Shown here: positions 4,801 through 30,400 of the stretch, in pieces
Layout: each line of letters starts with the position of its first letter
Numbering within the stretch: position 1 is the stretch's first letter
DNA from: a virus
Lineage: Duplodnaviria > Heunggongvirae > Uroviricota > Caudoviricetes
Length of the DNA: 64,000 nucleotides
Virus record (IMG/VR): IMGVR_UViG_3300045988_142422
Reading direction: 5' to 3' (one strand)
The notes under the pieces: model-generated
The model's input: the letters and a program-made list of their open reading frames with translations, nothing else
The model's database searches: none
Told to the model about the DNA's origin: nothing
Translations under genes and position numbers: made by a program

Positions 4801-6270
4801 GAAGGCGCAATGACCATCCGAGTTACTACGCCTACAACGACAACCGGAGGTGGTATTGCCAGTGCTCAGTTCACCTATATTAATCACGGTAGCGCGTATG
4901 CCCCTGCCTGGCGCAGAGATTACAACACGACTCTCAAACCAACTGCGGCTGATGTTGGTGCGTTGCCGAGCGGTGGCGGCACACTTTCCGGCGCACTCAC
5001 ATTATCTATGGTTGCGCCGAGTGTTCAATTACGAGGGCAAGGTACTGATACCAGGCAGTACATCATGGCTTACAGAACCGATGGTGCTACATCATGGTAT
5101 GTAGGTAAGGCTAACAACGGCTCTGATAGCGCGATGCTCTGGAACTATACGGGGGCAAACGGAGTCGAGTTGGCTGCCGATGGCAATGTGCGCATTAATG
5201 CGAAGGGTAAGCAGTTTACGTTCGCAAACAACGGCAATTTGGGGCTTGTCGCTTCGTTGGATCAAAGTTCTGTTCCACAGGGCACTTACCATCAAGTTGC
5301 TATGAACTCTGGAACCAGAGGTGCTAAATCCTATCTTCGTAAGTTCAGGGGTGGGAACGCAGATACCGTCTGGCATGAAACCGTTCAAGACGGAAATTAC
5401 CGACTTGCTACTGGTGACACTGATTCTCAGGGTGAAATGTACCTTTCGACTTCGGGTTGGGTTCGTTTCCGTGGTGAAGTTGTTTCAGAATCGGCCAATG
5501 GTTTGCGAGCCGCATTCGGTAACTTCGGTTTCTTTATCCGAAATGATGGAACGAACACTTATTTCCTTTTGACAGCTTCAGGTGACAAGTACGGTTCTTG
5601 GAATGGTTTGCGGCCTCTGACTATCAACAATGTCAGTGGCGCAGTGTCAATGAGCAACGGACTAACTGTTGCTGGTGGACTTAATGTAACGAGCGGAAAC
5701 CTGAAAATCTCGACGTCCAGCACATCGTGGATCGACATGAGAGCAGGCGTAGCCCTTTCGAACTCTTCAGCTGTTTCGACGTCATCCGCTTCGGCGATAG
5801 TCCGTCAAGAACACGCCGATCGCCATTTCATTCTTGGCGGTTTGGGTAACTCGCAGTTCGGGATTTACATGATTAACAAATCTCGAACTGCGAACGGCAC
5901 TGACGCTGCCGCTTATCTCCAGAACGACGGCACTTGGGTTTGCGCAGGCAACGGTAGTTTTAATGACGTTTACATCCGTTCCGACCGCCGTAGTAAGCGC
6001 AATATTCGCAAAATTGAGCGGGCGCTCGACAAGCTGGAGCAGATCGAAGGTGTTCTCTACGAGATTCAGGTCTGTGGCCGTTATGAGCAGTCTGGTGGCC
6101 TCATCGCTCAGGATGTCCAGAATGTTCAGCCTGAACTGGTAACGGTCGACCATAACGATCAGTCAGGAGAGCCTCGTCTGCGTCTTAACTACAACGGCGT
6201 TATCGGCATGTTGGTTGAGGCTGTCAAAGAGCTGCGCGAGGAAGTGCGCGAACTGAAGGCAAAAATGTAA
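1882..6270 (+). CDS. Long (L-shaped-type) tail fibre protein with C-terminal intramolecular chaperone (peptidase S74-like) domain
   Basis: 1462 aa; long Ala/Ser/Thr-rich low-complexity tract; repeated NLPGVNTTGNQNTTGNAATATKLQTAR units; C-terminus SDRRSKRNIRKIERALDKLEQIEGVLYEI...LRLNYNGVIGMLVEAVKEL matches the autoproteolytic chaperone module of fibre/endosialidase proteins (from memory). Confidence 0.8.
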   Translation: MWYREGTITFTQGSNTLVGAGTAWNVTANGVLPGMIVIGPDNKLYEIKRVTSDTNIVLSEPYTGETQSEVPCRIITTYEGDLTQFSARFTALMSRMSADSKSMRSWLTALDEVTIEREDGTEVTVKPLMQIVNEHNENVEWYKNNTDAIDAAGDKAREAAASAAAAAESANTAGEKASQASQSVSAAASSQSAASASATAAKKSETNAAASQQSAATSASTATTKASEAATSARDAAASKEAAKSSETNASLSASSAASSATAAGNSAKAAKTSETNARSSETAAGQSASAAAGSKTAAASSASAASTSAGQASASATAAGKSAESAASSASTATTKAGEATEQASAAARSASAAKTSETNAKASETSAESSKTAAASSASSAASSASSASASKDEATRQASAAKGSATTASTKATEAAGSATAASQSKTAAESAATRAEAAADRAEEIAGAVAMEDASLTTKGVVKLSSAVDSTSESLAATPKAVKAANDNANSRVPSNRKVNGKALTADITLTPKDIGTLNSVTMSFSGGAGWFKLATVTMPQASSIVYIALIGGAGYNVGSPHQAGISELVLRAGNGNPKGITGALWKRTAVGLTNFAWINTSGDTYDIYVEIGNYATRVNIHWDCTANATVSIYTSPTYSASKPSSVTDGVVYTMYSSHQKPTPSDIGALPTTGGTVSGPLSVTGGLTGSLNGNASTATKLQTARSIGGVVFDGSANINLPGVNTTGNQNTTGNAATATKLQTARTIGGVSFDGTANINLPGVNTAGNQNTTGNAATATKLQTARNINGVKFDGSGDININTLVSRGRVTALSGSTQGTAGIQMYEAYSNNYPTSFGNVLHMKGASAAGEGELLIGWSGTDGAHAPVYVRSRRDTSTANWSGWAQVYTTAHKPTAKDVGAAQTFSASYSTGAGNWTTAEFIAWLKERGAFAVPYWMMKGSWSYADNKIITDTGVGNICLAGAVIEVLGHEGAMTIRVTTPTTTTGGGIASAQFTYINHGSAYAPAWRRDYNTTLKPTAADVGALPSGGGTLSGALTLSMVAPSVQLRGQGTDTRQYIMAYRTDGATSWYVGKANNGSDSAMLWNYTGANGVELAADGNVRINAKGKQFTFANNGNLGLVASLDQSSVPQGTYHQVAMNSGTRGAKSYLRKFRGGNADTVWHETVQDGNYRLATGDTDSQGEMYLSTSGWVRFRGEVVSESANGLRAAFGNFGFFIRNDGTNTYFLLTASGDKYGSWNGLRPLTINNVSGAVSMSNGLTVAGGLNVTSGNLKISTSSTSWIDMRAGVALSNSSAVSTSSASAIVRQEHADRHFILGGLGNSQFGIYMINKSRTANGTDAAAYLQNDGTWVCAGNGSFNDVYIRSDRRSKRNIRKIERALDKLEQIEGVLYEIQVCGRYEQSGGLIAQDVQNVQPELVTVDHNDQSGEPRLRLNYNGVIGMLVEAVKELREEVRELKAKM

Positions 6271-6279
6271 TCAAGGTGA

Positions 6280-7119
6280 ATGGTGAGGGGACACCCTCAC
6301 CAATTCAGGATATTCACATCAAAAAGGAGATTAGATGTGCCAATTGTCGGTGTTCCCGGTTGGATTGGGTCTTCGGCTGTCAGTGTGACAGGCCAGAGAT
6401 GGATGAGTGCGGCTCGAACGGCGGTGCAACTGCCAGCGGCTGGTTCAATGTCTCAAATGGCCGGGCGATCTAAAGAAGTTCAGTACAGCATCGGTGCGAA
6501 TCATAACTACAACAAAGACACACTGATCAACTATTTAAAATCCCAGGGGGCGACGCCAGTCGTTGTTACCATTACAGGGGATCTGGTGTCGTCCAGTAGC
6601 GGCGTGCCATGTTTAGATTTCCCGAGTTCACTTACCAACTCTTATATCAGCCTTGTAATCAACGCAGGTGTGACTGTCTATGGACGCGGTGGCAATGGTG
6701 GTAGTAACGCTGCCGGTGCTGCTGGTGGTAACGCAATTAATAATGGCATCGGTACACGCTTGCGTATTACGAATAATGGTGCAATCGCTGGAGGTGGTGG
6801 CGGCGGTGGCGGCGGTAACAGGGGTAAACTAATATTTGGTGGTGGCGGTGGTCGCCCATTCGGTGCTGGTGGGTCTTCCTCTCATATGAGTTCCGGTGCA
6901 ACTGCTGGTACTATTTCCGCTCCTGGTAAAGGATCTGTTGGTGAGGGGTCTCTTAGTGCATATACAGGCGGTTCGGGTGGTAATGTCGGTGCTGCTGGAG
7001 GAAGATGTAATACTCAAGGTAACGGTACAGAATATAACGGCGGAGCAGCTGGTAAAGCTGTTACTGGTAATGCTCCAACTTGGACTAAAGTTGGGGCAAT
7101 TTACGGCGCTCATGTGTAA
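6280..7119 (+). CDS. Glycine-rich protein of unknown function (possible fibre-associated protein)
   Basis: ORF directly after fibre gene; poly-Gly tracts GGGGGGGGGNRGKLIFGGGGGRPFGAGG; alternative GTG start at 6337 preceded by AAGGAGA. Confidence 0.45.
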   Translation: MVRGHPHQFRIFTSKRRLDVPIVGVPGWIGSSAVSVTGQRWMSAARTAVQLPAAGSMSQMAGRSKEVQYSIGANHNYNKDTLINYLKSQGATPVVVTITGDLVSSSSGVPCLDFPSSLTNSYISLVINAGVTVYGRGGNGGSNAAGAAGGNAINNGIGTRLRITNNGAIAGGGGGGGGGNRGKLIFGGGGGRPFGAGGSSSHMSSGATAGTISAPGKGSVGEGSLSAYTGGSGGNVGAAGGRCNTQGNGTEYNGGAAGKAVTGNAPTWTKVGAIYGAHV

Positions 7120-7193
7120 GTACTTACCTACCAAGTGTGGGCGTTTTATGATATAAAACCGCCATCCCGATTTGACGATTCATGGAGGAAATA

Positions 7194-7517
7194 ATGTCGA
7201 ACGAGATGGCAGGCGTAACGCCAGAGCAGGTAGAGCGCATTGCCGCTATCGTTGCGCGTGAAGTTGTCGGCAAATTAGGTAAGGAGTTGCGTGAGGAAAT
7301 TGGCCAGGAGGTCAACGACCAGCTCAAAACCTACTTTGGCGATATGACGCCTTCGCAACACAGCATTCAGCACTCCAACCTGGACAAACTACTTAATCGG
7401 CTAGACGCCATCTCCAGCGGGTTCTTTGGCGGCATTATCTCAAAGATAACGTCGTTCCTGATTACCGCGCTGCTGCTGGGTCTGGCCGCTTATGGCGTGA
7501 AGAATGGACTGCAATAA
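7194..7517 (+). CDS. Small protein with C-terminal transmembrane helix (holin-like candidate)
   Basis: Second ATG at 7194 preceded by GGAGGA; C-terminal hydrophobic segment GGIISKITSFLITALLLGLAAYGV; sits at head of lysis-like cassette. Confidence 0.4.
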   Translation: MSNEMAGVTPEQVERIAAIVAREVVGKLGKELREEIGQEVNDQLKTYFGDMTPSQHSIQHSNLDKLLNRLDAISSGFFGGIISKITSFLITALLLGLAAYGVKNGLQ

Positions 7518-7530
7518 CAGGAGATCAAGG

Positions 7531-8223
7531 ATGAAAACTCCGAGAGGCATTCGTAATAACAACCCTGGCAACCTCGACAAAGGTTCGCCGTGGCAGGGGC
7601 TAATCGACAACCCTGCCGAACCGCGCTTTTGCACGTTTAAAGACCCTGTTTGGGGGATTCGTGCGCTGGCGGTGACTCTAATTACCTACCACGATAAACG
7701 TCGCGCAAAAGACGGCACAAGTATCGATACCATTCGTGAAGTTATTGAACGCTGGGCACCGCCGAATGAAAACAATACTGACGCCTACATTAATGAGGTG
7801 TCTAAAGCCGTTGGTGTAACCGCAGACATGATCATCGATCTGCATGATTACGACATCCTTCGACCTTTGGTTGAGGCAATCATTCGCCACGAGAATGGCC
7901 GAGGCCCGCTAAAAACGCTGAACACCTGGTATGCGGCAGAAGTTATTGAGGAAGGTCTGCGTCGAGCTGGCGTTGTTAAGCCGGTGAAAACCGTGAAGGC
8001 TGTTCCTGTAACTAAAGAAACCGCAGGCGCAACTGTTACAGCAGGTATTGGTCTGGCGCAGCTGGCCGATGTTATGCCGCAGGTTTCCGCTGCTATGGAT
8101 AAAGCACAAGGTCATATCTCTAGCGGGGATACAGTACGCATCATCTTCGGTATTGCCACTATTGTTGTGGCAGGATTCATTGCCTGGTCGCAGGTAAGAA
8201 AACACCAGAAAGGGATGGTCTAA
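7531..8223 (+). CDS. Membrane-anchored protein with conserved RGIRNNNPGN motif; possible cell-wall hydrolase of the lysis cassette
   Basis: ATG 7531 preceded by AGGAGA; N-terminal motif RGIRNNNPGNL...W.G; C-terminal hydrophobic helix IIFGIATIVVAGFIAW; function inferred from position only. Confidence 0.3.
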   Translation: MKTPRGIRNNNPGNLDKGSPWQGLIDNPAEPRFCTFKDPVWGIRALAVTLITYHDKRRAKDGTSIDTIREVIERWAPPNENNTDAYINEVSKAVGVTADMIIDLHDYDILRPLVEAIIRHENGRGPLKTLNTWYAAEVIEEGLRRAGVVKPVKTVKAVPVTKETAGATVTAGIGLAQLADVMPQVSAAMDKAQGHISSGDTVRIIFGIATIVVAGFIAWSQVRKHQKGMV

Positions 8224-8224
8224 T

Positions 8225-8476
8225 ATGCTAGGCAGCCTGATGACAAAGCTAAAAGTTGCTTTGATTACGCTGGCTGCCGTTCTTTTCGTTCTTGTCGGCG
8301 CTTACACGATGGGCGGGAATGCGGCGCGACGAGCAATGGAAGAGAAGGCAAAACAGGAAGACAGAAAACGACTTCAAAACACAGTGAAAGTGGTGAATGA
8401 GACGAGCAGTAAAATACGTCAGAAAGATGCTTCTGCCGTTCATCGTGAGTTGTATGATAAGTGGGTGCGTCATTAA
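8225..8476 (+). CDS. Rz-like inner-membrane spanin (i-spanin)
   Basis: N-terminal TM segment VALITLAAVLFVLVGAY followed by charged coiled-coil region; overlaps an embedded lipoprotein ORF in another frame. Confidence 0.6.
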   Translation: MLGSLMTKLKVALITLAAVLFVLVGAYTMGGNAARRAMEEKAKQEDRKRLQNTVKVVNETSSKIRQKDASAVHRELYDKWVRH

Positions 8477-8612
8477 ACCACAAACAGCCAGCGTGTTGTT
8501 CTGCGATGGGGCTGAGCCTATCTATATCAGCAATAATGATGTAATGACTGAAGAAACCGAACGCCAAATCCTTTTTCACAATACGATGGGAGAGAGGGTT
8601 TGTGGTTGGTGA
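8397..8612 (+). CDS. Rz1-like outer-membrane lipoprotein spanin (o-spanin), overlapping Rz in a different frame
   Basis: Basic n-region then hydrophobic stretch and lipobox-like ISGC (MRRAVKYVRKMLLPFIVSCMISGC); starts inside the 8225 ORF and extends past it, the classic overlapped spanin architecture. Confidence 0.6.
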   Translation: MRRAVKYVRKMLLPFIVSCMISGCVIKPQTASVLFCDGAEPIYISNNDVMTEETERQILFHNTMGERVCGW

Positions 8613-16172: not shown

Positions 16173-16655
16173 ATGGCGGTAGTTGTGAAAGCTGATTTGT
16201 CAAAAATCCCTTCTATTTCAGGAAATAACGGTTATTCACTTCGTTGTGAGGAAGTAAAGATAAACGGTGAGTCGGCATATTGCAGCTATTCCGTTTGCCA
16301 GCACACCATTCTTGCCTTCAAAGAAAACCGTCTTCCTCGAACTTCTTTCCAGTCGTGCGCAACCGCTATTAAAGCAGGCAAATGCAAGGCGTTAAAAATG
16401 ATGGTTGAAGAGATTCGTAAAGGAGAATCTCTGTATTTCGAAGATATGACCGCGCTCATTAAGGAGGTTGAAGAACGGAATAAACAAGCCAGAACTATAA
16501 AACGAAAACGTGACAGTGTAACGATTAATAGCATGGTTAAGAAGAGCACCACATCACAAACAGCGATCACTGACGTGTATGCGGCGTTGCTTGAAGAAAC
16601 AACAAAAGAAACACATGAGCAAATCGATCAACATATGGAGGTAAAACAACAATGA
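16173..16655 (+). CDS. Hypothetical protein
   Basis: 160 aa ORF; stop overlaps ligase start. Confidence 0.5.
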   Translation: MAVVVKADLSKIPSISGNNGYSLRCEEVKINGESAYCSYSVCQHTILAFKENRLPRTSFQSCATAIKAGKCKALKMMVEEIRKGESLYFEDMTALIKEVEERNKQARTIKRKRDSVTINSMVKKSTTSQTAITDVYAALLEETTKETHEQIDQHMEVKQQ

Positions 16656-17974
16656 AAAAGTTGATCGCACTTAAGCATAAGCTGGACGAAATGAAAGCTA
16701 TGGGAACCAATGCAAAAAAAGAGGCATTGGCCAACATGGATGACTTCGAGCAAAGCATGGTTTCATTGATGCTCAACCCTTTCATCCGTTTTGGGGTAAA
16801 GAAATACAAAGTGGCAGAGCCGCTTAGTGAGTCCATCCCAAGTGACGAAAAAGCCATTGATGTACTGAATAAGCTGGCCTCTCGCGAGCTAACGGGGAAC
16901 GCAGCAATAGCAGCTGTTGAGTCTATCGTGGCGTCAATGTGCGCCGATGGGCAGGACGTGTTCCGTCGTTTCCTCTTAAAAGACCCGAAAGCAGGTGTTG
17001 GGATTAGCCTATGCAACAAGGTTTTTGAAAATCCCATTCCGAAATTCGAGGTGCAGCTGGCGTCACCGTATAAAGAAAAAGGCGACAAATACCCCTTCAA
17101 GCCAAATCCTAAAGCAAAATGGCCGATGATTGGCAGTCTTAAGCTCGATGGTTTGCGAGTAATTTGCGAGGTTATTGTTGACGAGGAAGAGGTTAACTTC
17201 CTTTCTCGTACTGGTAATCCAATCACGTCTCTCGATCACCTAAAGCCAGCAATGCTCGAATTAGGCAAACTTTCAGGCCACAAACACATCTTCTTCGATG
17301 GTGAAGGAACAGCAGGTTCATTTAACCAGTCCGTATCTGCATTGCGCAAAAAGAACGTGCAGGCAATTGGCGCTATTTATCATGTTTTCGACTTCTTCCT
17401 ACCGGAATGGCGAGCACAGGCTAAATCCAAAGAGTATGCAAAGACAGGTATGAAGCTGAAAGAGCGCCTGGCTATGCTGGTGGCGTTGTTCAAAAACGAT
17501 CGCAGTGAAGGCTACACACAAGACATTCACCTGCATCCGTTCTATATCATCCATAGCCACGAAGACTTCATCGAACGCTTCATGAAACGCCTGGACGATA
17601 ACGAAGAAGGGGAGATGGGCAAAGATCCGAACTCTGTTTACGAGTTTAAACGTACCCGCAGCTGGTGGAAGTTAAAAGACGAAGATTCAGAAGATGGTGA
17701 AATTATCGACTTTGAGCCGGGCGACCCGGACTCTGGTTTTGCCAATACACTTGGAAAAATTGTTATTCGTCTTGAAAACGGCGTCATCGTTCGTGCGGGC
17801 GGCATTAAGCATAAATATCTGGATGAGATCTGGAACAACAAAGAGAAGTACCGTGGTCGTATTGTCGAGGTTCATTGTCACGAGAAAACACCGGACGGCA
17901 GCTTACGCCACCCACGACTGAAATGGCCGCGTTGCTTACGCGATACAGAAGATCGAATCGGAGATAAAGAATGA
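16652..17974 (+). CDS. ATP-dependent DNA ligase
   Basis: Motif I KLDGLR (KxDG), motif III-like FFDGEG; 440 aa. Confidence 0.75.
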   Translation: MKKLIALKHKLDEMKAMGTNAKKEALANMDDFEQSMVSLMLNPFIRFGVKKYKVAEPLSESIPSDEKAIDVLNKLASRELTGNAAIAAVESIVASMCADGQDVFRRFLLKDPKAGVGISLCNKVFENPIPKFEVQLASPYKEKGDKYPFKPNPKAKWPMIGSLKLDGLRVICEVIVDEEEVNFLSRTGNPITSLDHLKPAMLELGKLSGHKHIFFDGEGTAGSFNQSVSALRKKNVQAIGAIYHVFDFFLPEWRAQAKSKEYAKTGMKLKERLAMLVALFKNDRSEGYTQDIHLHPFYIIHSHEDFIERFMKRLDDNEEGEMGKDPNSVYEFKRTRSWWKLKDEDSEDGEIIDFEPGDPDSGFANTLGKIVIRLENGVIVRAGGIKHKYLDEIWNNKEKYRGRIVEVHCHEKTPDGSLRHPRLKWPRCLRDTEDRIGDKE

Positions 17975-18150
17975 TGCTCGGCTGGATGATTGCATTTTTA
18001 GCAGTTGGTTTTTTCATAGGTATTGTGGTGATGTCCAGTTGCATCAATGACTACATTAAAAGCGGTGTTATAGAAAGACGCGGTCGTATTTATCGCATTG
18101 TAGAAATAACCAACACCCTGAAGGAGATTAAGGATGATCGTATTAAGTAA
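17971..18150 (+). CDS. Small membrane protein (59 aa), translationally coupled to ligase
   Basis: ATGATG start overlaps ligase stop; RBS GGAG; TM segment MLGWMIAFLAVGFFIGIVVM; paralogous to the 18346 ORF. Confidence 0.45.
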   Translation: MMLGWMIAFLAVGFFIGIVVMSSCINDYIKSGVIERRGRIYRIVEITNTLKEIKDDRIK

Positions 18151-18349
18151 ACGGGAGAAGGAAACGCTTCATGAAATCAGTAAGTGGCCGGAGTTCCCTG
18201 AGTACTGGAAGCCTAAAACGCGAGCTAAGTTAGAGCGTTTAGGGTTGGTTGCAAACGTTTCTGAAACGTGGTGTTCGGCCAACTACCAGTTAACTGATAA
18301 AGGGAAAGTATTGCTACAGCAATTAGTAGAATCAGGAGTGTTAAAATGA
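18134..18349 (+). CDS. Hypothetical small soluble protein
   Basis: 71 aa; start overlaps previous small ORF. Confidence 0.45.
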   Translation: MIVLSKREKETLHEISKWPEFPEYWKPKTRAKLERLGLVANVSETWCSANYQLTDKGKVLLQQLVESGVLK

Positions 18350-18498
18350 TTCCATACATCTCATTAGCTTTTATGGGTGGCTTCCTTATCGGCTTCGGCA
18401 TCTGTCGTGATTTAATTAAGCAGGAACTTAAAACCAAAACACTGTGCATCGGAAAGCGTGTGTATCGGGTAGTTCATGAAACAAAGGTGAAAAAATGA
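18346..18498 (+). CDS. Small membrane protein (50 aa), paralogue of the 17971 ORF
   Basis: ATGA overlap with previous stop, RBS AGGAG; TM then GKRVYRVVHET tail resembling GRIYRIVEIT of the 17971 ORF. Confidence 0.45.
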   Translation: MIPYISLAFMGGFLIGFGICRDLIKQELKTKTLCIGKRVYRVVHETKVKK

Positions 18499-18785
18499 GC
18501 AATTTAACTTCTTGGGAATGGTGGTTGGCCACCTATTTCTTAGCGGCCGGAGTCGCATTCGCCTTTTACGTAGGTCAGTTAGTCGTAAAACTGTTGCTGA
18601 TTAAATTTGCTAGTCATAAACGTATCGATGATGGTCTGTGGCGTCTTGGCACCCTGGTGGAAACTCGCTACGGGCAACTTAAGGAGAACGAAACCATTAC
18701 TATCCAAGCGAAACGATTCACTGCCACCATTACAAGAACACCTAGTCGTAGAGTGGCCTTGATCAAAAAAGTCACAACCGAATAA
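18495..18785 (+). CDS. Small membrane protein
   Basis: 96 aa; N-terminal TM WWLATYFLAAGVAFAFYVG; ATGA overlap with upstream ORF. Confidence 0.5.
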   Translation: MSNLTSWEWWLATYFLAAGVAFAFYVGQLVVKLLLIKFASHKRIDDGLWRLGTLVETRYGQLKENETITIQAKRFTATITRTPSRRVALIKKVTTE

Positions 18786-18794
18786 AAACATATT

Positions 18795-18816
18795 GATAAG
18801 TATTTACTTACTTATC
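18795..18816. promoter_or_regulatory. Palindromic motif B copy (GATAAGTATTTACTTACTTATC)
   Basis: 8-bp arms GATAAGTA/TACTTATC around TTTACT. Confidence 0.45.
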
Positions 18817-19175
18817 TTTTGTGTATAAGATGACTTTGTTTTCGTTGAGACGCGACTGTTTGAACTTAAATACAAGTGCAAACGAAGAAGTCTATCTGGC
18901 AGTAGCCTAATAAGCCAAACACCAGCGAGGTCAGTTTCCAGCCTCGTTACCGAAATGGGACACACTGAGCGAGTGTGATTGCAGAACGCAGGAGGGAACA
19001 TTCATGTTCCCTCCGATGAAGTAACAGAATGGGCGGTTGGTATATTTTCAACTCCATATGACTCCCGGATTCTTAGCCACTGACCGCCCATCCTGTTACG
19101 TCATTTTGTTCAATTATGTCGTTTATACTGGGTTAAAAAGCGGCGACGTAGCCCGGCTGGTATGGTTAGCCAGCA

Positions 19176-19297
19176 CACAACGTTGAGGCCATTACATTTT
19201 TATCAATTCTAAGGTTCTATTCACAGAGATACCGGCGAGCGTTGATATGTAACATGTTGGGCAAACATTCAATCGGAGTAGTGGCCTCAACGTTGTG
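19176..19297. other. Long hairpin: 16-bp perfect inverted repeat CACAACGTTGAGGCCA separated by about 90 nt
   Basis: Arms at 19176-19191 and 19282-19297 are exact reverse complements; upstream of tRNA pair. Confidence 0.6.
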
Positions 19298-19563
19298 AAG
19301 ACAGGATTGTTGTGTAGGTTTAACCACTGTTGCCATTGGTGCCTGTTTTCACAACAAATGATTCCATACATCACATTGTATAAATTACAAAGTAGGTGCT
19401 GTCCTCAGAAACATCATCTACTTAAAGAGTTTGCCTTCTACTATTGAGCGAAGTCGAAAGCGTCTGGCACTAACGAAAAGTGCAAGTAGCGGTGCGTTTC
19501 CTGGCAGAAACTAAACCGTCGCGATTGGCACTGTTGAGTAATAAATACAGGCAGTGCTGAATT

Positions 19564-20205: not shown

Positions 20206-21114
20206 TTAATGATTGCCTAGATATGATTTTAGTTCTTCTTTAATGATTAGTGAGTATTCTAAAATATCACTTAGTAAAAATTTTGCTCTGTTAAAATACC
20301 CACCAAAAGAACCTAAAATTTCAGATGGTCTTTCTAAGAGCATCACAATATCATCTTCTTGCACTTTAGTAATGTAACTTCTAACAGCTTTTTCTCCAAT
20401 AACTCTTTTCTTACCGTTTATTTCAGATTCATCTAAAACCTTATTTATAAATTTTTCTGTATCATTGAATCGTCCACTATTGTGTACTATTGTATGTCTT
20501 AGTAGTTCAATTAGCTTGATGTTAAAGCGATAGTTTTTGCCAATCTTGTTGTTTGTTTCTATCTCTTTGAAGCCAGGTATTTTATTTCTGAAAATTTTAG
20601 TTATTTTTTTCGATGGGTTACTTTTTGCTTTTAATAATCTGTAATAAACTTCCCTTTTCCCAATTTCATCATCTTCAACCTTACCAAAATCACTTGAGGA
20701 CCATAAATCATTTCGAACACATACAGTATAGACATATATTGCCTCAATATAGTCTTCCAGTAACTCATAGGCTTCAGTAATAACCCACTGATATTGTTTA
20801 TTTTTCAAAGTATTACACAATCTTATCTTTTCTTCTAAATCAATGGCGCTGTTACCTATCTCTAATGTTGAACCTGTATATGGGTTTGAACATAAATGGC
20901 GAGCTAACGTTGTGCCACACTTAATCTTAATAGTTTCATTAATATTAATAATAGTATCTGGATTCTGTGCATACTCCACTTCTTTAAGAAGACGTTTTAT
21001 ATTTTTCTTTGTTGTATCATTTATCTGATTTAAATAGTCAAAAAGTAAAGATATTTCTTCTCTAAATTCGTTGTATTTATTTTCAATCAAAGAATCAGAC
21101 AACTTACCAATCAT
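20206..21114 (-). CDS. AT-rich hypothetical protein with HEPN-like R-x4-H motif (candidate abortive-infection/defence protein)
   Basis: 302 aa, Lys/Asn/Ile-rich, markedly lower GC than flanks; motif LLRHTIVHNSG; isolated on minus strand between tRNA cluster and glutaredoxin. Confidence 0.3.
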   Translation of the reverse strand: MIGKLSDSLIENKYNEFREEISLLFDYLNQINDTTKKNIKRLLKEVEYAQNPDTIININETIKIKCGTTLARHLCSNPYTGSTLEIGNSAIDLEEKIRLCNTLKNKQYQWVITEAYELLEDYIEAIYVYTVCVRNDLWSSSDFGKVEDDEIGKREVYYRLLKAKSNPSKKITKIFRNKIPGFKEIETNNKIGKNYRFNIKLIELLRHTIVHNSGRFNDTEKFINKVLDESEINGKKRVIGEKAVRSYITKVQEDDIVMLLERPSEILGSFGGYFNRAKFLLSDILEYSLIIKEELKSYLGNH

Positions 21115-21563: not shown

Positions 21564-21743
21564 TCCCACCAAACCACTCCTGTTTCCCTTAAAATTCAAA
21601 AAACAACGTCTAAATGATTCCATACCTACTATGTATGGAATCATTGCTGAAAATGAGTTACTTTTACTCTTGATCCTATAAGAATCTATGCCTAATATAC
21701 TGTTTACTTATACAGTGCATCGGCGTAACTCGGTGATTGTCAT

Positions 21744-27436: not shown

Positions 27437-30400
27437 CTTCTCACTTGGGGAGTCGGCTCTAAAAGCAGAAAACGCGGTGAAGATTGCCAGAGAAGCTGGC
27501 TACACCGCTGTAATTTCAGCAGATAGCATGAATATTGCGAGCGTTATTCCACTACAACGTGCCGCTGGTGACGACATGGCGATTATTTGTGGTGTGAAAC
27601 TAAACATTGTTGATGATCCCACATACGAGCACCGGGCTAAACTTGCTAAAGAATCTATGAGATGTATGGAATCATTAGAGCGGGGACGTAACTACTCGTT
27701 TACCGCTCTAATTAAAAATGAGCAAGGATATCGCGACATCTGCGAACTAATGACGGCGGCCAACACACGAGAACAGTTCTACTTTGTACCGCGTCTCTCG
27801 CTCGAACAGTTGGTTTCTACATATGCCAAAGGCAACATCATCCTGCTTACTTCCGACATCGGTAGCGTGTTCCAACGCAACGATTTTGCAAAAATCATAA
27901 GCACACTGATTACAGCGGGTGGAAAAGACAACTTCTATAGTGTGGTTTATCCGCACCCTACCCCATTCTACGACCAGATTAACGTCCGGGCGATGAAAGT
28001 CGCCAGCGCATTGAAAATAGAGCCAGTGGCGTTCTATCCCGCTTATTACGAATCGATCGACGATGCAGACATTAAAGACATTGCGCACATGGTTACGAAC
28101 AACATCAAAATCGACCAGCCGCATCGTCTGCGTATCCCCCACCAGCGAGATAACGCCGTCAATGGTCGCCGCCATCTCCTTGAGGCGCTTAAAGCCTTCT
28201 CCGTTCGCATGGATGTGCCGGTAACAGCTGCAATGGCCTCAACAACGCAGGATACCATTATCGATTCCTGCACATGGCGCTGGCATGAATTGCCACCAGC
28301 ACTGCCCAAGATGGCAGACGACGAACCTGCAACGCTGATGAAACTGGCTGTTGCAGGGCTGCGTAAACGTCTTACCACAAAAGAGTTTGGATACACACCG
28401 CCTGCTTCTGAGAACAGGGTTTATGTTGAGCGGCTAAAGTACGAAATGGACACGCTGACTCGCCTGGGATTCTGTGGTTACTTCCTGATGGTGCGCGATC
28501 TGATGAATCATAGTCGTGAAACTGGCATTCCCGTTGGGCCTGGTCGTGGTTCCTCTGCCGGTTCTCTGGTGGCGTGGTGCATAGGCATAACCAACGTCGA
28601 CCCAATCCGTCACGGTCTTCTGTTTGAGCGTTTCATCAACCCTGAGCGTCTCGACTTGCCGGATGCGGACTTGGACTTCAGCCAGGCACGTCGCCATGAG
28701 GTGATCGAGTATCTGAATGAACGCTACGGCGAAGATTACGTTGCGGGTATTCCGAACTTCACCTACCTGGGCGCCGCTTCTGCGCTGCGAGACACTGCGC
28801 GTATTTACGGTGTCGACGCTGCGGATATGGCGGTATCCAAAGAGTTCAAGAATCTGGAAGACGATAGCCTGTCTCTGGAAGAGCTGCGCGAGCAACTGGC
28901 CAGCCTGGACAAATACGCCACGAAAAACCCGGAAGCGTTCAAAGCGGCGTGTAAGCTGCAAAGCCTGATGCGTGGTTTTGGTCGTCACGCTGCGGGGATG
29001 ATCGTCGCTGGCGTTCCACTGGTAGAGCGCACGCCCGTCGAGCTGCGTGGCAACGCTCGCTGTATTGCGTTCGATAAACGTTACTGCGAGGCGATGGGGC
29101 TGATTAAGCTGGACGTTCTCGGTCTGGCAACGCTCGATCTGCTGGATAGCGCGAAACGCTACATCAAAGAGAGTACCGGGGAAGACATCAATCTCGATGC
29201 TATTCCACTGGACGATCGTAAGGTTCTGGATGGGTTCGCTGCAGGGTACACGCAGGGCGTATTCCAGCTGGAGTCCGGCCCCATGCGCAAGCTGCTTAAA
29301 GATTTAGGTGGTGGAATTGAGCCAATGAGCTTTAAAACGGTCGTCGCTACAACTGCGCTCTTCCGGCCGGGGCCAATTCAATCAGGAATGTTGGATGACT
29401 ATGTTTCTGTCGCCAAAGGCTTTATGACGCCGGAATCATTACACCCCGTTCTTGATGAACTTACCGCGGAAACAAATGGCGTGATTCTCTATCAGGAACA
29501 GACGATGAACGCGACTCGATTGCTTGCCGGCTTCACAATGGCTGAAGCTGACGCTGTGCGTTCCGCAATCGGTAAGAAGAACATGGAAAAAATGAAGAGC
29601 ATGGGCGAGAAGTTCATCGTTCAGGCTCAAGCTGGCTGGATAGACGTTGAGCTGGAAGATGGCACTACACAGCGCATTCACCGTGCGGAACATTTTAAAT
29701 GCGAAGACGGAACTCTGAAAACTGTCGAAGAGGCACTTGAGCACGGCGCAAAACTACCTATAAACGCAGTACGCGTTACAGCGTCACATCCAGGGCTATC
29801 AGAGATGAAAGCGAAGGAGATCTGGACCGCATTTGAGAAAAACGGAGCCTATCAGTTCAATAAATCACACTCCGTTGCTTATTCTTTAATCAGTTATCAG
29901 TCTATGTGGCTAAAGACGCACTACCCTGCTGAGTTCTTCGCAGCTGCGCTCACCATTCTGGGCGAGGATAAGCATCAGGGGCTGGTGAAGGATGCGCTGA
30001 CCTATGGCATTCGCGTATTGCCACCAGACGTTAATGTGTCATCTAACCGAATTGAGATCCGCACACTCGAAGACGGCAGTCAGGCACTGTATGCGCCATT
30101 CTCTGCTGTGAAAGGCTGTTCTGAAAATGGTTGTCAGGCAATTATGCGTGCGCGTGAGAAAGTTGGTGGCAAATTCGAGTCAGTGGCACAATTCGATGAA
30201 GCGGTCGAGAAGCGTGCATGTAACAGTCGTGTACGCGAGTCGCTTCATAAAGTAGGGGCTTTTGCGTCAATTGAGCCAGGCAGTCTGCCAGCAACTGATC
30301 CTGAACGACTGCGCGACCAGGCTGAGCTGATGGGCAATCTCATCATTGACGCTGTTAAAGCATCACGTCCGTTCGAAATGAATCCTAAGCGTTCTGCCGA

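Follow-up and report, generated by a model that had tools for sequence, protein, structure and literature searches.

A conserved chain of four overlapping small genes behind the DNA ligase gene of an SSU5-like phage-plasmid is predicted to encode three very small membrane-anchored proteins and one with a winged-helix fold

We analyzed four small open reading frames (ORFs), designated O1 to O4, that follow the DNA ligase gene in a 64,000-nucleotide stretch of viral DNA (IMG/VR record IMGVR_UViG_3300045988_142422; Caudoviricetes). The whole stretch is referred to below as the window. The four ORFs, all on the plus strand, were found at the positions given in an earlier note on this DNA that had been made from its sequence alone. 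Together with the ligase gene, they form the following series.

16652-17974, plus strand: ATP-dependent DNA ligase (Pfam PF01068 DNA_ligase_A_M, E 5.8e-13), annotated as DNA ligase in Escherichia phage Cyrano and Salmonella phage SSU5.
17971-18150, plus strand: O1, 59 amino acids, with a predicted transmembrane (TM) helix at residues ~3-22 that contains a GxxxG motif, and a basic tail (phrog_4381, E 1.1e-39).
18134-18349, plus strand: O2, 71 amino acids, predicted to be soluble and modeled as a minimal winged helix (phrog_4054, E 1.7e-45).
18346-18498, plus strand: O3, 50 amino acids, with a TM helix predicted at the N terminus, followed by a strongly basic tail (net charge +7) (phrog_6302, E 1.4e-36).
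18495-18785, plus strand: O4, 96 amino acids, with a predicted N-terminal TM helix leading into a long helix, a beta-hairpin, and a disordered basic tail (phrog_4507, E 1.8e-58).

Upstream of the ligase gene, the genes for a helicase and a primase and two genes of unknown function lie on the same strand without gaps, and the four ORFs form the conserved and tightly coupled 3' tail of this replication-gene block. The TGA of the ligase gene overlaps the ATG of O1 in the junction ATGATG, a 4-nt ATGA overlap, and the O2/O3 and O3/O4 junctions are likewise ATGA overlaps of 4 nt. The earlier note had described such stop-start overlaps for every gene of the chain; this is true of these three junctions but not of O1/O2, where the ATG of O2 lies 14 nt before the TAA of O1 and the two genes overlap by 17 nt in different frames. 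This was the only descriptive error of the note. A Shine-Dalgarno (SD)-like site was present 5-7 nt upstream of each start, as the note had also claimed (GGAG at 17960-63, AGGAG at 18122-26, AGGAG at 18334-38, and AAGGTG at 18484-89), and both these sites and the overlap geometry were retained in relatives.

The segment from 16600 to 19200 was 98.7% identical to Cyrano, the phage-plasmid pLF82 of the host Escherichia coli LF82, and 79% identical to SSU5. When 951 bases around the four-gene region were compared with the plasmid database PLSDB, matches at the DNA level were obtained in 764 plasmids. Nearly all of these were ~100-115 kb in size and non-mobilizable, and their hosts belonged to Escherichia, Klebsiella, Enterobacter, Salmonella, Yersinia (pMT1), Citrobacter, and Cronobacter. 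On the strength of these identities and plasmid matches, the window is assigned by sequence to the SSU5-like phage-plasmids.

Orthologues of the four ORFs were extracted from 16 diverse relatives, whose loci are given L numbers below, and the ratios of nonsynonymous to synonymous substitution (dN/dS) were computed against the window. The four frames were kept in 13-15 diverse loci with amino-acid identities of 58-79%, while synonymous sites were saturated (proportion of synonymous differences, pS, 0.5-0.9). The dN/dS values were 0.08-0.16 for O1 and 0.07-0.10 for O4. For O3, the value was ~0.13-0.29 in 13 of 14 comparisons and 0.50 against L007. In O2, the proportion of nonsynonymous differences (pN) was 0.20-0.30 against a pS of 0.74-0.91. 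An independent set of 77 loci from IMG/VR, 74 of which were classifiable, gave the same four genes intact together with the ligase gene in 53/74 loci, and O1 alone was missing in 13/74. Among the 60 IMG/VR loci with all four genes, the junction overlaps were -17 in 60/60, -4 or -1 in 57/60, and -4 in 58/60. The orthologues in SSU5 and pMT1 stand in the same order and share 59-79% identity with the window proteins. Since the frames are kept with dN/dS of ~0.07-0.2 at saturated dS, these comparative data confirm that the four ORFs are real protein-coding genes under purifying selection. Conservation of the reading frames in relatives was the check that the earlier note had proposed for its view of the chain as genuine, translationally coupled genes, and the conserved frames, overlaps, and selection bear that view out.

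The first 15 nt of O3 are constrained at the DNA or RNA level (see below), and it might be argued that some ORFs do not encode functional proteins and owe their conservation to overlapping DNA or RNA signals or to recent common descent. However, outside the O3 15-mer, synonymous variation was observed in 88% of the codons for invariant residues. The indels of the relatives were also mostly in-frame or removed whole genes, and pN was far below pS in all four ORFs in lineages with saturated dS. We therefore give this explanation next to no weight.

The earlier note had expected genes of this size to be missed by annotation, which proved only partly right. All four are annotated in SSU5 and in many RefSeq records, but O1 is not annotated in Cyrano, and several plasmid tables lack O3 or O1. 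For the PLSDB gene tables without O3 or O1, the tables themselves are incomplete. The small ORFs are thus real but inconsistently annotated, and databases already list their products as hypothetical proteins from a family of elements that is well known. The known orthologues, SSU5_045-048 and YPN_RS24475/21315/24045/21310 of pMT1, are the same proteins and have no assigned function. Some O4 orthologues (e.g., SSU5_048 and P0001) carry the label 'C-type natriuretic protein'. We rejected this label because no natriuretic-peptide Pfam match was found; the name has spread over hundreds of database records without domain support.

We also searched for families that could inform on function. O1 to O4 matched the four PHROGs listed above over the whole profiles, and all four PHROGs are of unknown function. 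Nothing significant was obtained for any of the four proteins in Pfam, NCBIfam, or PADLOC, and sequence searches of PDB gave no match for O1/O3 or O4 and none of significance for O2. Homologues were found only on SSU5-like elements, with no informative distant relative among them, both in k-mer searches with O4, O1 plus O3, and O2 and when the O4 profile was run exhaustively with HMMER. The O4 profile hit 17 representative clusters in 1.84 billion proteins.

Each of O1, O3, and O4 has a single N-terminal hydrophobic segment, with Kyte-Doolittle (KD17) hydropathy values of 2.59, 1.88, and 2.15, respectively. The flank N-terminal to this segment is 3-19 residues long and uncharged or acidic, and the C-terminal parts have net charges of +3, +7, and +7. 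Judged from hydropathy and the positive-inside rule, the three proteins are predicted to be single-pass membrane anchors with the N terminus outside and the C terminus inside, and the rule would consequently place their conserved domains in the cytoplasm. The AlphaFold2 (AF2) model of O4 has low confidence (predicted local distance difference test, pLDDT, 64). It consists of a helix at residues 6-61, strands at 67-71 and 76-80 that form a beta-hairpin (67-80), and a disordered basic tail. The O4 alignment contains 41 invariant columns, most of them in the predicted cytoplasmic part.

By contrast with these three, O2 is a soluble protein that models as a minimal winged-helix fold (helix-turn-helix plus beta-hairpin wing), and it contains an invariant basic helix, PKTRAKLE. 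No Pfam or NCBIfam match above the cut-off was obtained for O2, profile matches to PDB had E values of 0.4-0.7, and PADLOC gave only a partial match to Csa3 (E 0.0015). At 71 amino acids, O2 lacks the dimerization helices of MarR-type winged-helix proteins, with which it may be compared along with the stand-alone viral winged-helix proteins STIV F93 and TubR. The earlier note had recognized O1 and O3 as mini membrane proteins but overlooked O4 as a third TM-anchored protein, as well as the winged-helix fold of O2.

The same note had proposed that the 59- and 50-residue proteins arose by duplication, on the grounds that both have a TM helix followed by a basic tail. Both products do begin with a hydrophobic helix and end in a basic tail, and comparisons of the two sequences speak for the proposal. 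BLASTP aligned O1 and O3 with 31% identity over 45 residues (pairwise E 3e-5), and profile-profile comparison with hhalign gave a probability of 88% (E 2.8e-6) over 48 gapless columns. In the merged alignment, which has no internal gaps, G13 and G17 (the GxxxG of the helix), R39, Y41, R42, T47, and K51 were invariant and K30 and V44 nearly so, giving a common motif R-x-Y-R-[IV]-[IV]-x-x-T. Shuffle tests on the tails only gave p = 0.02 for O1 against O3 and p = 0.0003 for O1 against the single O3-like protein of distant relatives. These results suggest that O1 and O3 are probably diverged duplicates. The tail of O4 (KRFTATITRT) was also considered as a third paralogue of O1/O3 and was rejected (hhalign probability 0.2-4.8%, shuffle p 0.7-1.0).

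The history of the chain was examined in more distant elements. Three distant O4 homologues (~30% identity) were placed on contigs. The loci L019 and L021 contain helicase, primase, and ligase genes in the order helicase-primase-...-ligase, a single O3-like gene of 55 amino acids (MHNMIPYILLG...GRRVYKVVEV), and an O4 homologue, with neither O1 nor O2. Because these distant relatives have only the ligase gene, the O3-like gene, and O4, it looks from the gene orders as if O3-O4 is the older and most retained pair and O1-O2 a later insert of the SSU5 clade between the ligase gene and O3. O1 stands at the ancestral ligase junction, and O3 retains the junction with O4. The number of PLSDB records positive by tblastn was 532 for O1, 637 for O2, 682 for O3, and 653 for O4; O1 is thus the most often lost of the four and O3 the most retained.

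The loss of O1 can be traced to a direct repeat around the starts of O1 and O2.

17960-17976, plus strand: left copy of an imperfect direct repeat of 17 nt, GGAGATAAAGAATGATG, which spans the SD-like site and start of O1 and lies 163 bp from the right copy.
18123-18139, plus strand: right copy of the repeat, GGAGATTAAGGATGATC, which spans the SD-like site and start of O2 and falls within the 3' end of O1.

In E. coli plasmids of the pAMPD01 type, the 163 bp between the repeats are missing, which leaves a hybrid repeat, GGAGATAAAGAATGATC, and an ATGA overlap between the ligase gene and O2. This precise 163-bp deletion of O1 is accounted for by recombination between the repeat copies, and it was found in many E. 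coli plasmids, in the L003 group, and in 13/74 IMG/VR loci. Other relatives have in-frame deletions of the O1 helix (L010 and L014), a fusion of O2 and O3 via a G-run (L005), a stop within O4 (L009), a replacement of the 3' end of O3 and O4 (L013 and L014), or a loss of ligase, O1, and O2 (L012). These natural deletions, the in-frame stop, and the fusion show that each gene, although conserved under selection where present, is individually dispensable to the element.

Three independent deletions that remove the O1 TM helix or the whole gene would fit a peptide that is costly to its carrier. The products could be small toxins, or factors that set the time of lysis, of the holin/antiholin or Hok type, which permeabilize or depolarize the membrane late in infection. 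Their size, with a TM helix and a charged tail, does resemble that of small toxins and holins, and O4 gave a weak match to the holin family phrog_2359 (E 0.027) that covers 27 TM residues only. However, purifying selection extends beyond the helix to the predicted cytoplasmic tails, neither an antisense RNA nor an antitoxin partner was observed, and both the location and the coupling of the four genes associate them with replication genes. In addition, the lysis cassette lies ~10 kb away in a different module.

7182-8612: lysis cassette, with a holin candidate at 7182-7517, an endolysin at 7504-8223, and Rz/Rz1.

A toxin or lysis-timing role is therefore very unlikely in our estimation. A holin role for O1-O4 in particular was rejected on context, as the lysis cassette is elsewhere and no similarity to holin-family profiles was found beyond the O4 match at E 0.027. 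Within the cassette, the holin candidate has 111 amino acids and a C-terminal TM helix, overlaps the endolysin start, and is not annotated as a holin in Cyrano. The endolysin ends in a hydrophobic helix, and Rz and Rz1 come next.

Expression of the genes in the plasmid-prophage state was taken from published RNA sequencing of E. coli LF82. Thirteen Cyrano genes were expressed in lysogens; CYRAN_37-39, which correspond to O2-O4, were not among them and are absent from the moron list (PMC9928086). In overnight lysogen cultures in LB, the log2(FPKM+5) values of CYRAN_37-39 were 2.3-3.0, i.e., 0-3 fragments per kilobase per million mapped reads (FPKM) (PMC9928086 S1 Table). The ligase, terminase, and capsid genes were at the same level as O2-O4, while the repressor gene was at ~96 FPKM, and under other conditions O2-O4 rose only to 27-73 FPKM (PMC9928086 S1 Table). 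These values cover O2-O4 only, with O1 unannotated in Cyrano. The three genes are essentially silent in the plasmid-prophage state and behave like lytic genes, from which we infer that they are expressed in the lytic phase.

These data bear on the possibility that the products act in the lytic phase as superinfection-exclusion or host-takeover factors at the membrane, blocking the DNA entry of competing phages or disabling a host membrane protein. Small, membrane-anchored, non-essential, and variably present products of an early-type phage operon would suit such factors, and repeated loss, as seen for O1, is expected of an accessory gene in an arms race. The T4 proteins Imm and Sp are small inner-membrane superinfection-exclusion proteins that are early and non-essential, and Sp acts via a periplasmic domain. 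O1, O3, and O4 are like them in being small, non-essential, and, by prediction, located in the inner membrane, but they share no homology with them and have their conserved parts predicted in the cytoplasm. Periplasmic exposure is predicted for only 3-19 residues, no similarity to exclusion or defense families was found in PHROGs, Pfam, NCBIfam, or PADLOC, and the genes are silent in the plasmid-prophage state, in which a temperate element would most need exclusion. Exclusion of the prophage type is thus disfavored by the expression data together with the predicted topology, and we consider an exclusion or takeover role as a whole unlikely.

The start of O3 coincides with a short repeated motif.

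18346-18360, plus strand: 15-nt motif ATGATTCCATACATC, codons 1-5 of O3, invariant even at synonymous sites.

At the O3 start, no locus showed any change in this 15-mer (P ~2e-4 when judged by the four-gene background). Five copies of ATGATTCCATACATC were found in the window, where 0.14 would be expected: the one at 18346, one at 19358-19372 (plus strand) before a tRNA cluster, one at 27661-27675 (minus strand) antisense inside dnaE, and an inverted pair at 21614/21630. The pair forms a perfect 12-7-12 site (21614-21644) ~100 bp upstream of the integrase gene (~100-130 bp upstream of the integrase and repressor genes). Klebsiella and Enterobacter relatives (L026 and L027) have copies at orthologous places and a perfect 12-7-12 inverted site, with a variable spacer, before the integrase gene. 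The dispersed copies, the invariance at synonymous positions, and the orthologous conservation point to ATGATTCCATACATC as a candidate protein-binding site. One possibility is a recombinase core site accompanied by half-sites; another is an operator of the adjacent repressor, dispersed in the manner of that of P1 C1.

The position of the motif, which begins exactly where O2 ends and O3 starts, would also suit a regulatory system in which O2 is a winged-helix transcription factor held and released by the membrane proteins, or in which these are its targets, so that lytic timing is controlled. The modeled fold of O2 with its invariant basic PKTRAKLE helix and the presence of putative membrane anchors on both sides of O2 in overlapping reading frames are consistent with this. 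However, O2 is missing from distant lineages that keep both O3-O4 and the 15-bp motif, and it is therefore not an essential binder of the motif; furthermore, a winged-helix fold by itself does not show DNA binding. A membrane-sequestered regulator thus appears improbable.

Between the 15-mer copies lies a variable hotspot of accessory genes, which in Klebsiella relatives is occupied by AbiGi, PhoH, a YafO toxin, and a colicin immunity gene. Compared with positions 6118-7028 of Cyrano (L001), the window segment 19716-21533 has ~220 extra bases between tRNA-Thr and tRNA-Ser, and a 302-amino-acid ORF (20206-21114, minus strand) replaces CYRAN_41. In Yersinia pestis pMT1 (L004), homology in the segment 1701-2552 stops after the structured RNA described below, near the place of the second 15-mer site in other elements, and caf1R of the F1 capsule locus follows. 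From this arrangement, the caf island of pMT1 appears to have been inserted at the 15-mer hotspot.

Taking these results together, we regard the description of the chain, namely a conserved, coupled tail of a replication block that encodes mini membrane anchors and a winged-helix protein, as very probable. As an explanation of the whole, we prefer a dispensable accessory module of the lytic phase at the cytoplasmic face of the inner membrane, with tethering as its favored activity, at a probability of roughly 0.35. In such a module, O1-O4 would be transcribed with the replication genes, translated by coupling, and kept off in the plasmid-prophage state. They would act during the lytic phase at the cytoplasmic face of the inner membrane, where the basic tails and the winged-helix O2 might tether or organize replicating phage DNA or replication proteins. 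The contiguity of helicase, primase, ligase, and the four genes on one strand, an arrangement kept in L019 and L021, supports the replication context.

A precedent for such a role is p16.7 of the Bacillus phage phi29, a membrane-anchored organizer of phage DNA replication in a Gram-positive host, which has 130 amino acids and a dimeric DNA-binding domain. The likeness to p16.7 lies in the small size, the predicted N-terminal TM anchor and putative cytoplasmic C-terminal part, the early or replication gene neighbors, and the dispensability. Like a protein of the p16.7 type, the products are encoded and probably expressed with replication genes, as the chain overlaps the ligase gene and stands behind those for helicase and primase, and O2-O4 have the same level as the ligase gene in lysogens. 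There is, however, no similarity in sequence or fold, and O1, O3, and O4 have only 50-96 amino acids; p16.7 is thus a functional analogue at most. The specific tethering mechanism, which is argued from this analogy, is doubtful.

Several points weigh against the tethering module. No homology ties O1-O4 to replication, DNA binding, or membrane tethering, and the families are confined to SSU5-like elements. The predicted topology comes from hydropathy and charge counts only, with a weak charge bias near the O1 helix (+1 in the first 15 residues), and the O4 model has the low confidence noted above. In O4, the conservation of the predicted cytoplasmic part runs residue by residue, a pattern for which a specific protein partner would account no less well than generic DNA binding. 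Homologues of O4 also persist in elements without the ligase gene (L012 and L023-25), so that their function would not be tied to the ligase. Finally, the RNA sequencing covers lysogens only, and O2-O4 without O1.

A more far-reaching version of the module can also be imagined, in which O3-O4 with O1 and O2 would be a previously unrecognized membrane module of enterobacterial phage-plasmids that organizes lytic replication and is gated by the dispersed 15-bp site, acting as a P1 C1-like operator or a network of recombinase half-sites. We hold this to be a long shot. In the literature on SSU5-like elements, we found no work on these locus tags, on exclusion, or on small membrane proteins. These phage-plasmids, which carry resistance genes, are frequently found in clinical E. 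coli, Klebsiella, Salmonella, and Enterobacter. The group includes pMT1 of Y. pestis and the pHCM2-type plasmids of Salmonella Typhi, and its lytic and replication biology is almost unstudied. O1-O4 are among its most conserved genes of unknown function that adjoin the replication machinery, and their role, whether as replication anchor, excluder of competitors, or host poison, would help to explain the switch between plasmid and phage life. The finding on the four genes is mainly useful for annotation and fairly ordinary, and two neighboring non-coding features are more unusual.

Downstream of O4, two further features were recognized.

18803-18831, plus strand: promoter-like element TTTACT-N17-TAAGAT, directly after O4, conserved across 9 aligned loci.
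~18838-19300, plus strand: structured RNA with conserved hairpins, outside the four-gene chain.

By its sequence and conservation, the promoter-like element is taken to mark where the gene chain ends and the next unit begins. A consensus promoter scan did not report this element and gave fewer promoter-like sites than in shuffled sequences, and a terminator scan found no clear terminator after O4.

Conservation of the RNA region (~18838-19300) exceeds that of the coding genes, and its hairpins show compensatory changes; RNAalifold on 8 loci gave 118 pairs, 26 of them covarying without breaks. A start-less frame within it (18878-18910) encodes ANEEVYLAVA followed by two stops, with ANEDTYLAVA in SSU5 and ANDNQYLAVA in other relatives. 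This frame resembles the enterobacterial SsrA tag, ANDENYALAA. A canonical transfer-messenger RNA (tmRNA) was rejected for this region. A scan for a T-arm and acceptor stem found none, and hence no tRNA-like domain; the Rfam tmRNA models gave sub-threshold scores of 14-17 bits; and blastn of the region found no match to chromosomal ssrA. ARAGORN called none at default settings and called a tmRNA only at relaxed settings (-ps70/80), mostly with junk output. Of the 259 E. coli genomes with this RNA region, none has it annotated. A CRISPR spacer of 33 nt in E. coli NZ_LR778147.1 matches window positions 19164-19196 with 100% identity. In the chromosome of E. coli A28 (NZ_CP028747.1), an unannotated stretch at 1586864-1586973 has 74% identity to window positions 18868-18980, which comprise the tag frame and the next hairpin. 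The stretch might encode a related RNA within a prophage.

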